NCBI GenBank assembly: GCA_964016885.1
Contig: OZ024741.1
Location: 93,620,001-93,684,000, forward strand
DNA from: Eledone cirrhosa
Lineage: Eukaryota
Direction: 5' to 3'
DNA: 64,000 bases
Notes under the pieces: generated by a model
Seen by the model: the letters and a program-made list of their open reading frames with translations, nothing else
Databases searched by the model: none
Told to the model about the DNA's origin: nothing
Shown here: positions 9,533 through 46,731 of the stretch, in pieces
Layout of the letters: every line of letters begins with the position of its first letter
How positions within the stretch are numbered: position 1 is the stretch's first letter
Program-made: the position numbers and the translations under genes

Positions 9533-9693
9533 AAATTGGAATAAATGCTCTGAAATAGCGATATATATGTGAATATAGACATAGAATATTCGAAAATATT
9601 CTGTATGTTTATAATAAACATTTTGAAGACCTAATCGCTATAGAATAGAATACGTCACGTATTACAATTAGATTCTCGATAAAAGCAAGGGAA

Positions 9694-9736
9694 GTAATCT
9701 ACGCGTTTCATTCTCGTTAGAAATCATCAGGACTAC
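9694..9736 (-). ncRNA. Type I hammerhead (also 10004-10046, 10314-10356)
   Basis: Reverse complement of the motif at 10544-10586. Confidence 0.85.
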
Positions 9737-10543
9737 ATATCCAGTGCTTTTATCGAGAATGACACAGCTAGAGACTTATAGAATACTTAGCTGTGTACAG
9801 GAACTGGTTTGAAAGAGCGGTTGCCGGTCCGGCAGAAATTAGAAATTGGAATAAATGCTCTGAAATAGCGATATATATGTGAATATAGACATAGAATATT
9901 CGAAAATATTCTGTATGTTTATAATAAACATTTTGAAGACCTAATCGCTATAGAATAGAATACGTCACGTATTACAATTAGATTCTCGATAAAAGCAAGG
10001 GAAGTAATCTACGCGTTTCATTCTCGTTAGAAATCATCAGGACTACATATCCAGTGCTTTTATCGAGAATGACACAGCTAGAGACTTATAGAATACTTAG
10101 CTGTGTACAGGAACTGGTTTGAAAGAGCGGTTGCCGGTCCGGCAGAAATTAGAAATTGGAATAAATGCTCTGAAATAGCGATATATATGTGAATATAGAC
10201 ATAGAATATTCGAAAATATTCTGTATGTTTATAATAAACATTTTGAAGACCTAATCGCTATAGAATAGAATACGTCACGTATTACAATTAGATTCTCGAT
10301 AAAAGCAAGGGAAGTAATCTACGCGTTTCATTCTCGTTAGAAATCATCAGGACTACATATCCAGTGCTTTTATCGAGAATGACACAGCTAGAGACTTATA
10401 GAATACTTAGCTGTGTACAGGAACTGGTTTGAAAGAGCGGTTGCCGGTCCGGCAGAAATTAGAAATTGGAATAAATGCTCTGTACACAGCTAAGTATTCT
10501 ATAAGTCTCTAGCTGTGTCATTCTCGATAAAAGCACTGGATAT

Positions 10544-42480: not shown

Positions 42481-44445
42481 TATATTTAGTTTGATTTATA
42501 TTTATATGAGAACTAGCCGATAAATCTTTTGATTCCTAAATCTTTGATTCCCTCTTTTTACTGTTTATTTTATTGTATTTATTTTTATTTTTATTTTTTA
42601 TTCTTATTTTTATCTAAACATTCCTCATGAAAAATTAAGCTACCCTAAAAGCCGATGCTCCAAATTTTATGAATTAACCTTACACTTGATAAACTTATAT
42701 ATTAAATATAGGAACATATGTAGACATTATTGGACATCATAACCTTTTTTTTTTTTTGCGATATTCCTTGCTAGATGTGATTTGATAGATAATTTTTGGC
42801 TTTGTCTTGTAGTGAACTTGGCAATATATTGTCAATTAACCTTGAAGGGTTGTTCTTTGTGGTTTATTTTTTATTTTTATTTTTATTTTTATTTTTATTT
42901 TTATTTTTATTTTTATTCTTTTAGTATTGTAGTATTCTATAATATTTTTATATTTTTATTTTTTATTTTTTATTTTATTTTATTTTTATTTTTAATATTT
43001 TTATATGTAAATTTTTATATGTAAAGTTTTAATACGTAATAATTTTAAAACATAGTATTTTTAATATGCAATATTTTTATTATGTAATATTCTTTCGTAA
43101 TATTCTTTTTTAGTTTTCTATTCTATATTTTTATATTTTTATATATTTTTACTTATTATCATTATTATTGTTATCTCTGCTTATAATATAATATATATTT
43201 TCGATTAGTATATTGAAATCTGCTCTCTATTTCTGCTTGATAGATAATCTTGTAGAGTAATCGCAAGAATAATAATACGCTCAAATGTTTATACCACATT
43301 GAGAATGTTTTCCGGTAACTTTGAATTTGCGGAGTGAATCAGTTGGATTCACATAGACATATGAATTTTTTTTTAAAAAACTAAACATAAGATAATGAAT
43401 TTTCACGCATTGTGAATACTTGTTTCATTCAGGAATACTGATATTTACAATATAGTGTAAGTTTTATAAATACTAATACATTAAAACATAGGGTTTTCTA
43501 CGCCTCGAATATGTCTGGCTATTTTTAAATTTTTCTCTCTCTATATCTCTCTATATCTCTCTATATCTCCCTTACATTAATACTTGAGCTAAATAAATAA
43601 ATAAATAAATAAATAAATAAATAAATGCATCATTGATACACTTACTCAAAATGACCTCCCACTACCTAATTTTTCTATATCTATATTTATATATGTATCT
43701 ATCTCTATTTCCTCTCTCTATATATATATATATATCTCTTTCGGTCTCTTTACATGAAGCTCTTCGCTTTATCTATTTTTCCATCTCTCTATTTTGTCCC
43801 ATGCATTTCTTCTTTTTCTTCTTCTTCTTTTTCTTCCTTTTCTTCGTTTCGTCTTTCTTTCTTTCTTATTTCCCTCTTTTCTCTCTCTCTTTCTTTCTCT
43901 CTGTATTTTCACTGCTAGAGTGAACCTCTTCAAATGAAGTTGATGTTTATTACGGTATGTCGAATATATTTATCTATAAAACTGTTTATATTGTATTTTG
44001 TCTGATGAAGGCATAGCATATTGTTAATATGATATCCCCGAAATATATATAATGAAATAAATATGGTTTTATAAATATAGTTTTCCATTTATTTAATATT
44101 GTAAATATACTCCAAGTATTTGTCGAGTGCTTTTATATCAGTTATAAATATTTACTAGTTGTAACCCAACAATTTTAAATATAACTTTACATATATATAT
44201 ATATATATATATACATATATATATATATATATATATATATATATATATATTTATATATATATATATACACACATATATATATATATATATACATATATAT
44301 ATATATATATATATATATATACATAAATATATATATATATATATATATTTATATATATATATATACACACATATATATATATATATATACATATATATAT
44401 ATATATATATATATATATACATAAATATATATATATATATATATA

Positions 44446-46731
44446 TAAAACAAATAACGAAACGAAATTAAATTTCGTTTCGTTTGTAATTCACTTTTGT
44501 ATGACTGACACTTAAACAATTAAGTTAAAGATGTACATCCATATATGTATACTGAAATACTAGTATGTATATGAATACACACACGTATACATATGTAGAT
44601 GTACCAAGTTTTTTTCACTGGTCACTTTACTGTGAGTGGCCAGCTATTCTGTATGTAAACACACAGACAAACCGGTTTTTAGAGTCATACTGGTTTTTGA
44701 GGAAACACCTTTCCTCTATTCTCCAGAAAGCCAGACAAGGAATATTGAACTAGTTTCGTTGTTGTTACAACTCATCAGCAATATTTACCTATCTTCCGGC
44801 CTCTCTAGAGAATCGTAAAAGCACATATCGTTATATGCTTTTTCTATGAAAATTAGTAGTGGGCAGACCAACTTGCATAGAGTGTGAGTAAGTACCGGTT
44901 CAATGGAGACGATAAAACAAATAACGAAACGAAATTAAATTTCGTTTCGTTTGTAACTCACTTTTGTATGACTGACACTTAAACAATTAAGTTAAAGATG
45001 TACATCCATATATGTATACTGAAATACTAGTATGTATATGAATACACACACGTATACATATGTAGATGTACCAAGTTTTTTTCACTGGTCACTTTACTGT
45101 GAGTGGCCAGCTATTCTGTATGTAAACACACAGACAAACCGGTTTTTAGAGTCATACTGGTTTTTGAGGAAACACCTTTCCTCTATTCTTCAGAAAGCCA
45201 GACAAGGAATATTGAACTAGTTTCGTTGTTGTTACAACTCATCAGCAATATTTACCTATCTTCCGGCCTCTCTAGAGAATCGTAAAAGCACATATCGTTA
45301 TATGCTTTTTCTATGAAAATTAGTAGTGGGCAGACCAACTTGCATAGAGTGTGAGTAAGTACCGGTTCAATGGAGACGATATTTCGTTATTTGTTTTATC
45401 GTCTCCATTGAACCGGTACTTACCTACACTCTATGCAAGTTGGTCTGCCCACTACTAATTTTCATAGAAAAAGCATATAACGATATGTGCTTTTACGATT
45501 CTCTAGAGAGGCCGGAAGATAGGTAAATATTGCTGATGAGTTGTAACAACAACGAAACTAGTTCAATATTCCTTGTCTGGCTTTCTGGAGAATAGAGGAA
45601 AGGTGTTTCCTCAAAAACCAGTATGACTCTAAAAACCGGTTTGTCTGTGTGTTTACATACAGAATAGCTGGCCACTCACAGTAAAGTGACCAGTGAAAAA
45701 AACTTGGTACATCTACATATGTATACGTGTGTGTATTCATATACATACTAGTATTTCAGTATACATATATGGATGTACATCTTTAACTTAATTGTTTAAG
45801 TGTCAGTCATACAAAAGTGAGTTACAAACGAAACGAAATTTAATTTCGTTTCGTTATTTGTTTTATCGTCTCCATTGAACCGGTACTTACTCACACTCTA
45901 TGCAAGTTGGTCTGCCCACTACTAATTTTCATAGAAAAAGCATATAACGATATGTGCTTTTACGATTCTCTAGAGAGGCTGGAAGATAGGTAAATATTGC
46001 TGATGAGTTGTAACAACAACGAAACTAGTTCAATATTCCTTGTCTGGCTTTCTGAAGAATAGAGGAAAGGTGTTTCCTCAAAAACCAGTATGACTCTAAA
46101 AACCGGTTTGTCTGTGTGTTTACATACAGAATAGCTGGCCACTCACAGTAAAGTGACCAGTGAAAAAAACTTGGTACATCTACATATGTATACGTGTGTG
46201 TATTCATATACATACTAGTATTTCAGTATACATATATGGATGTACATCTTTAACTTAATTGTTTAAGTGTCAGTCATACAAAAGTGAGTTACAAACGAAA
46301 CGAAATTTAATTTCGTTTCGTTATTTGTTTTATCGTCTCCATTGAACCGGTACTTACTCACACTCTATGCAAGTTGGTCTGCCCACTACTAATTTTCATA
46401 GAAAAAGCATATAACGATATGTGCTTTTACGATTCTCTAGAGAGGCCGGAAGATAGGTAAATATTGCTGATGAGTTGTAACAACAACGAAACTAGTTCAA
46501 TATTCCTTGTCTGGCTTTCTGGAGAATAGAGGAAAGGTGTTTCCTCAAAAACCAGTATGACTCTAAAAACCGGTTTGTCTGTGTGTTTACATACAGAATA
46601 GCTGGCCACTCACAGTAAAGTGACCAGTGAAAAAAACTTGGTACATCTACATATGTATACGTGTGTGTATTCATATACATACTAGTATTTCAGTATACAT
46701 ATATGGATGTACATCTTTAACTTAATTGTTT
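44446..46731. mobile_element. 467-bp hammerhead tandem array (non-LTR retrozyme-like): 2 inverted units plus ~2.9 direct units
   Basis: aaaacaaataacg at 44447 and 44914. Inversion at ~45381. ttcgttatttg at 45383/45850/46317. One hammerhead per unit. Confidence 0.9.
45526..45570 (+). ncRNA. Type I hammerhead (also 45993-46037, 46460-46504 +; 44741-44785, 45208-45252 -)
   Basis: aatattg CTGATGA gttgt aaca acaac GAAA ctag TT caatatt. Palindromic stem III AACTAGTT, GUU site. Confidence 0.9.

Follow-up and report, generated by a model that had tools for sequence, protein, structure and literature searches.

Head-to-head insertions in a (TA)n-rich window

The DNA studied here is a window of 64,000 nucleotides (nt) from Eledone cirrhosa (contig OZ024741.1, 93620001-93684000, of a 3.0-Gb assembly), a pile of young retroelement insertions within (TA)n tracts. 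It contains RTE and CR1-like long interspersed nuclear elements (LINEs), several Penelope-like elements (PLEs) and two non-coding arrays, here called A and B. Both arrays, the PLE at 36477-44190 and a pair of pseudo-long terminal repeats (pLTRs) at 28.8 kb consist of an antisense block followed by a sense block, a layout recognised in an earlier note on this DNA and borne out by the coordinates (Table 1). Each of the eight outer ends of these four insertions is a 3' end, lies downstream of a hammerhead core and meets (TA)n, as that note had it. They do not seem to be the equivalent tails it took them for but two fixed internal start sites, a proximal and a distal one. In this study, we give evidence that the arrays are retrozymes which were probably inserted in trans by a Penelope-type protein with reverse transcriptase (RT) and GIY-YIG domains, both strands of the (TA)n target being cut and each cut end priming complementary DNA (cDNA) at a different site.

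The units of array A are at least 99.6% identical. Its right boundary is ambiguous up to 12579, the proximal site being a TA-like stretch, and its inner junction is a 3-nt overlap. Neither array A nor array B contains an open reading frame (ORF) of 150 amino acids (aa) or more. The hammerhead of family A, to which array A belongs, has a short palindromic stem III and a U.U pair at the base of stem II; it has no Rfam match and was identified by its core motif and by stems read from the sequence. The hammerhead of family B, represented by array B, matches its Rfam family with E=3e-7 and 37.7 bits, under the gathering score of 52, and at gathering level Rfam gave no matches. On these motifs both arrays are protein-free hammerhead retroelements (non-LTR retrozymes), with self-cleavage and circular RNA as predicted properties. 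Their units of some hundred bases stand in tandem, each with a hammerhead, and are non-coding; the insertions are dispersed and have target duplications of more than 4 bp, three retrozyme loci with informative flanks showing a duplication of 11-14 nt. Older retrozyme families with units of about 314 nt, whose tail is 74-83% like that of family A, are present at L033:6370-6720, L045, L065, L103, L150 and L153 (L-numbers denote sampled genomic loci), and those in L065 and L103 are likewise head-to-head. Loop 2 is similar in families A and B and these older families, and all of them have an 11-nt motif some 100 nt past the cleavage site.

Table 1. Features of the four head-to-head insertions and their flanks (positions within the window)
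Feature	Position	Strand	Remark
(TA)n-type tract, left flank of array A	8245..9532
Array A left arm, 3.07 units of the 310-nt unit	9533..10480	-	outer end at distal site, unit ~266-271
Array A right arm, 6.77 units	10481..12570	+	outer end proximal, unit ~232-240
Type I hammerhead motif, family A, one per unit	10544..10586	+	predicted cleavage after 10580
(TA)n-type tract, right flank of array A	12570..14405		next element RTE, not PLE
Neptune/Nematis-type PLE insertion, left arm	28586..28809	-	outer end at proximal site
Neptune/Nematis-type right arm: ORF end and pLTR, hammerhead core near 29190	28805..29445	+
Hydra PLE left arm, 5'-truncated	36477..38804	-	99.7% identical to 41777-44103; outer end proximal
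Hydra PLE right arm, partial tandem: pLTR, ORF, 3' region with pLTR	38807..44190	+
Intact 736-aa ORF, RT and C-terminal GIY-YIG	40270..42480	+	Hydra motifs
Minimal type I hammerhead motif, Hydra pLTR	43994..44059	+	8-bp stem I
(TA)n tract common to Hydra insertion and array B	44191..44446
Array B left arm, 2.0 units of the 467-nt unit	44447..45381	-	outer end distal, unit 465
Array B right arm, 2.9 units	45382..46730	+	outer end proximal, unit 394-399, ~68 nt before distal
Type I hammerhead, family B, one per unit	45515..45586	+	Rfam HH9
(TA)n-type tract, right flank of array B	46731..47369

Two-armed layout genome-wide and comparison with RTE

Genome copies were counted by exact matches to hammerhead cores or element ends. 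Core matches numbered 4225 for family A, 5114 for family B and 3470 for the Neptune-type family, and the first half of the Hydra core had 3041. Loci were sampled from the first 100 matches listed per core and lie mostly on contig C1. Nine of the first ten family-A arrays on C1 are head-to-head, each with a different junction, and the inversion in the arrays is thus not due to chance. Two arms were likewise found in 28 of 40 family-A loci anchored on one end (two were left unclassed), in 27 of 36 loci of an older 312-nt family-A subfamily (18 judged by coordinates, 18 fetched because they were single), in 18 of the first 20 family-B loci, five of them as stubs of 8-20 nt read by eye, and in 18 of 20 Hydra loci. 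Among single-armed family-A insertions, 15 end at the proximal and 4 at the distal site (p=0.02); the proximal site is TA-like, and RNA can pair with the target there.

The earlier note had named inversion frequency in other copies, set against RTE, as a test of its reading. Inversion proved to be the rule in retrozymes, and no inverted arm was present in 21 RTE copies (20 loci), though nearly all of these adjoin TA; head-to-head pairs numbered 1 among 100 listed RTE copies versus 37 in 60 Hydra clusters. The outer ends of the retrozymes have no RTE-type trinucleotide tail, and copies without inversion and with such tails, which would have spoken for RTE, were absent among those sampled. Because RTE copies adjoin TA and yet are never inverted in this sample, it is inversion that discriminates PLE-type elements from RTE. 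The (TA)n target is confirmed in the flanks of all four insertions, but is not diagnostic and was rejected as discriminating evidence, since RTEs occupy the same tracts. The missing trinucleotide tail and the inversion also led us to reject the view of the retrozymes as RTE-mobilised elements resembling short interspersed nuclear elements (SINEs).

One proximal and one distal end per insertion

The outer ends fall on two sites per family, 35-95 nt apart: unit positions ~232-240 (proximal) and ~264-271 (distal) in family A, 394-399 and 464-465 in family B, window positions 44103 and 44190 in the Hydra element, and two sites 55 nt apart in the Neptune-type family. Fetched two-armed arrays of family A use one site of each kind in 57 of 58 cases, and the exception has a truncated outer end. 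By coordinates, all 39 end pairs on C1 (0-87.6 Mb) are unlike, which has p=2e-12 if sites are chosen independently; about one third of these pairs overlap with the fetched loci. The same region lists 26 unpaired ends. Of the 20 that were fetched, 9 proved to belong to further unlike pairs and 9 to be single arms; the other two were a stub and a gap. When 40 loci were anchored on the proximal end, the other arm was distal in 27 and a stub in 1, and a second proximal end was never seen. In the older subfamily, the 100 proximal ends listed include no pair of two such ends, and the plus-strand genome totals for family A are 958 proximal and 952 distal ends.

In family B, 12 of 14 arrays follow the rule by script, one more is split by a later RTE and one is truncated. 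At L041:2948-7710 a family-B arm is interrupted by a full-length RTE whose 5' repeat of 403 nt is present in 2.6 copies. The rule was seen in 16 of the first 20 Hydra loci and in 13 of 20 Neptune/Nematis-type loci. Contigs from an independent read set (X1) show TA loose ends behind 46265 and 46331, the two family-B sites. By analogy with published PLEs, the two fixed ends are the PLE 'tail', i.e. putative start sites of the RT.

Target duplications, arm kinship and inner junctions

Target duplications, which are readable where the flank has a non-TA base, were present at 12 of 71 loci, and shuffling the flanks gave 10 in 674 pairs. Of the 12, nine measure 11-14 nt and are adjacent to both ends (five in Hydra, two in family A, one each in family B and the Neptune-type family); the three longer ones may be flank repeats. 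Duplication together with cDNA at both ends points to staggered nicks with 3' overhangs. Hydra and Neptune-type donors are not separable by duplication length.

Both arms of an insertion are the same sequence variant. Divergence between arms within a locus is 0.17% in family A and 0.5% in family B, and between loci 2.3% and 3.4%, respectively; in family A this amounts to 12 differences in 7223 sites within arrays and 4031 in 178745 between them. Array units are identical apart from singletons, with up to 14 per arm, as expected from rolling copying of a monomer circle. The pattern makes it fairly likely that the template was a monomer RNA circle. A contig of read set X6 wrapping the 467-nt unit fits tandem DNA equally well as a circle and was not used.

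The inner ends are scattered and joined mostly by overlaps of 0-6 nt or short inserts. They show no excess at the site of ribozyme cleavage (4 of 114, 3.3 expected; 0 of 24). Inner ends adjacent between arms number 6 of 57 in family A (3.9 expected) and 3 of 12 in family B (0.5 expected), where a tail hairpin blurs the ends. Run-off from a cleaved monomer and a single broken concatemer are therefore unsupported, the inner ends lying neither at the cleavage site nor, in family A, next to each other. A correlation of arm lengths vanished within subfamilies and was dropped.

Alternative explanations of the inverted arm

PLE machinery might also produce an inversion by fold-back, in which a single cDNA primes itself and is copied back, as has been proposed for Penelope inverted repeats (PMC3846280; this and the other papers cited were accessible in part, and statements on them apply to those parts). 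Fold-back would account for the variant shared by the arms and for short templated inverted inserts at some junctions (L062), and 53 of 69 arrays are compatible with it in length. It needs one arm to lie within the other. Neither arm contains the other in 16 of the 69 retrozyme arrays and in 10 of 20 simple two-armed Hydra loci, and for these loci fold-back is excluded. Array B fits neither direction, failing by length one way and by variant register the other, and the stop of the second arm at the other fixed site is left unexplained. We consider fold-back very unlikely; priming from both DNA ends agrees better with the one-of-each rule, the stagger length and arms that are not nested.

The arrays could be satellites, a landed PLE end or monomer having been amplified by unequal crossing-over or slippage and inverted later; local amplification has been suggested (10.64898/2026.07.22.740005). 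Such an origin is hardly probable. About 1,900 dispersed family-A insertions have both outer ends at fixed sites, units are identical across both arms save singletons, each array has one inversion, which is always head-to-head, and the units are not copies of any PLE end tested.

Highly improbable, too, is mobilisation by RTE or another LINE with inversion through L1-type twin priming. RTE outnumbers all other elements in these (TA)n tracts, with 13,002 exact matches to its 3' end; the missing inverted arm in RTE and the missing RTE-type tail in retrozymes speak against it. Twin priming predicts that the distal arm stops at the proximal site, which occurs in 4 of 57 arrays (3.9 expected by chance) and 0 of 12.

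Least credible of all are fold-back chimaeras from long-read sequencing or assembly: long inverted repeats are a familiar read artefact, but artefacts would be symmetric and would not have their ends against TA at two sites particular to each family, the target duplications, locus-specific junctions, diverged older copies and the RTE within one arm are biological, and both family-B TA junction sites recur in the independent reads.

The Penelope-like elements and the likely donor

The element at 36477-44190 had been labelled a Naiad in the earlier note. This identity was rejected, since its GIY-YIG domain is C-terminal to the RT and a hammerhead is present, whereas Naiads have the nuclease first and no hammerhead. 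By its motifs, the hammerhead in its pLTR and its (TA)n target, the element is assigned to the Hydra clade. The protein has RWR at residue 37, DKT at 117, YRDD at 351, CxCx5C at 595, CxxC at 693 and CxH at 720, RT motifs at 250-355, a nuclease motif at 629-644 and no CCHH; the ORF has no Pfam match, even at E=5. The published clade is characterised by a C-terminal endonuclease, RW[K/R], DKT, CxCx5C, CxxC and CxH motifs, lack of CCHH, a hammerhead and a (TA)n target (PMC8557442), and the window element shares its C-terminal endonuclease, motif set, lack of CCHH, hammerhead and (TA)n. Its unit of about 4 kb, owing to a 1.7-kb 3' region, differs from described Hydra families, which are generally below 3 kb (PMC8557442). 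The family is young, with many open genome copies at 98-100% identity. In the window, the outer end of the right arm lies at the distal site, 86 nt past the proximal one, and the pLTR hammerhead has a second copy near 40030 and an antisense copy near 36570. The 28.8-kb pLTR pair belongs to a second PLE family (3878-8246, minus strand) of Neptune or Nematis type with a CX4CxxC linker; its right arm ends at the distal site, about 55 nt past the proximal one, and its inner junction is a 5-nt overlap.

Further families were met in the sampled loci. A second young Hydra family (L127:3414-4001; L211-L222) has many open 758-aa ORFs, and its pLTR hammerhead has stem II, including the U.U first pair, in common with retrozyme family A. 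The commonest insertions of a third Hydra family (L265:1170-3026; L231, L251, L069, L129) are tiny two-armed stubs of 100-250 nt with an 82-nt tail. Upstream of the start sites of this family, a complete hammerhead core could not be made out. A hammerhead-bearing two-site family with a 1-kb AT-rich 3' region, 5-kb tandems and 443 exact matches (window 61731-61900; L271-L300) probably belongs to the Hydra clade.

Which PLE moves the retrozymes cannot be read from neighbourhood. Each array lies one TA tract from a PLE, as the earlier note had pointed out. A PLE is the nearest annotated neighbour of retrozymes at 10 of 30 loci and of RTE at 4 of 20 (Fisher p=0.35), some calls resting on weak matches; adjacency is not diagnostic and was rejected as evidence. 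Between family A and the second Hydra family, 24 of 26 hammerhead-core bases are alike (z=6.2, nhmmer E ~0.005), a weak link.

Mixed insertions, flanked by TA and without TA between their parts, were found four times among about 76 loci of the older family-A subfamily. A retrozyme arm is joined to an arm of the window's Hydra family at L062, to a Neptune-type arm with a 7-nt templated insert at L147, to a 25-nt arm of the third Hydra family with 6-nt microhomology at L231, and at L236 to the probable Hydra family of window 61731-61900, whose two boundaries there fall on one and the same base. Other copies match both parts of L062 and L147 with 98.7-100% identity. None of the four involves RTE. 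About 60 loci of the youngest family-A subfamily have no mixed insertion, and no further one came to light in 22 single-match Hydra loci, in 20 loci of Neptune type and among 20 unpaired family-A ends. The mixed insertions are no more than suggestive of PLE copying. A Hydra-clade protein is the likeliest donor, with moderate probability; the 40270..42480 protein, which the earlier note had named for a mobilisation assay, is one candidate among several PLE families.

Proposed mechanism and points that weigh against it

Priming by a PLE from both nicked strands in trans, as the earlier note had supposed, is supported by the 11-14 nt duplications and the non-nested arms. In the mechanism we propose, the PLE protein would cut both strands of (TA)n, the staggered nicks leaving 3' overhangs. 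One cDNA would then be primed per cut end, each at a different fixed start site of the RNA, by two RT active sites (probably those of a dimer) which sit on one RNA 35-70 nt apart. Repeated copying round the monomer circle would give up to 14 units per arm. Finally, the 3' ends of the two cDNAs would join by microhomology, and each would prime the second strand of the other.

Several observations weigh against this mechanism or its attribution to PLEs. About a quarter of the loci are single-armed. The Hydra insertion at L076 has two proximal ends, the second arm at L067 ends at an internal site, and one possible distal-distal neighbour pair, known from coordinates only, occurs among 95 family-B ends. 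In array B, one variant recurs in the second unit of each arm (unit position 189; 45191 and 46050), and in L170 a variant spans four consecutive units, so that a multimeric or mixed template is needed in those two. The 26-nt hammerhead core is the only sequence link of the retrozymes to PLEs, and their tails have no significant or extended likeness to the six PLE or RTE ends tested. The four mixed insertions involve four different PLE-type families, deletion between neighbouring palindromes or insertions could create mixed junctions, and L146 joins a retrozyme to a non-PLE LINE, which we take from its motifs to be Tx1-like. In vitro, the Poseidon PAc protein showed no difference between strands in its choice of start site (PMC11167929).

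Differences of A/G type between units (array B unit position 189; L170 and L174 unit position 67) may reflect mixed templates, a dimer circle or A-to-I editing.

A wider reading, which we put forward tentatively and hold to be possible rather than probable, is that PLE integration is itself two-ended. A protein dimer would open the two strands of (TA)n at points 11-14 nt apart. The RT sites of the dimer might each be bound to a different start, so that complete insertions would be born as asymmetric palindromes without separate priming of the second strand. Retrozyme circles would parasitise this process, and mixed Hydra-retrozyme insertions would be single events with two RNAs. If so, Hydra-clade proteins would be copiers of viroid-like circular RNAs in an animal genome.

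Other insertions in the window

A non-coding head-to-head insertion lies between TA tracts at 25785-26226, and its family is present at several other loci. A 330-nt non-coding repeat with an RTE-like 3' end, tandem and solo, at 29920-30390 and 31094-31870 resembles an RTE-dependent SINE. Further PLEs at 55576-58110, 24303-25712 and 62900-64000 comprise an open Neptune/Nematis-type ORF of 774 aa and two fragments from the 3' part of Hydra elements.

Comparison with known systems

The broad idea that PLEs move retrozymes is already in print. The published papers, in their accessible parts, treat two questions as open: how PLEs come by their tandem and inverted structures, and by which enzyme animal retrozymes are moved. 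What this analysis adds is the RTE control, the statistics of duplication and nesting, the reassignment of the window element to the Hydra clade and the mixed insertions. A literature search, with subscription papers and bioRxiv supplements largely outside its reach, came upon no account of retrozyme insertions with two arms, nor of the one-of-each rule. Counts from these young, short, protein-free insertions, which number in the thousands, make it possible to tell models of integration apart. Moreover, the genome offers intact young Hydra ORFs, templates of 310 and 467 nt and start sites predicted to a few bases, and hence a defined assay.

Mobilisation of retrozymes by PLEs was proposed by Cervera and de la Pena (2020, PMC7229834), and a link between the two was argued from phylogeny by Li, Clavereau and Pollet (2026, bioRxiv 10.64898/2026.07.22.740005); in the portions of these papers at hand, the case consists of co-occurrence and pLTR kinship. 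Like the metazoan non-LTR retrozymes described there, the arrays are dispersed and non-coding, and every unit in the tandem measures a few hundred bases and has its own type I hammerhead. The retrozymes in those papers are described as direct tandems, and an inverted arm, a pair of start sites or a mixed insertion was not found in those portions (PMC7229834; 10.64898/2026.07.22.740005). The link to PLEs drawn here comes from insertion anatomy, unlike the sequence kinship in published retrozymes.

Endonuclease-bearing PLEs are described with an inverted 5'-truncated copy at the 5' end, partial tandems, a one-sided 'tail', duplications of 8-10 nt and (TA)n targets, and they mobilise in trans sequences between pLTRs (Craig et al. 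2021, PMC8557442; Arkhipova et al. 2013, PMC3846280). Their tail is given there as 'optional' and 30-40 bp long, whereas here each of two sites 35-95 nt apart is used once, and the cargo is a protein-free concatemer, unlike the PLE insertions in those texts. The closest biochemical system is the Poseidon PAc protein, which in vitro cuts and extends both strands at AT-rich targets (Frangieh et al. 2024, PMC11167929). Two internal RT start sites bound its tail, a dimer is predicted and hammerhead cleavage is not needed (PMC11167929). PAc is of a different clade, and the genomic data presented here require both sites in one event, whereas no coupling of strand to site was observed for PAc in vitro.

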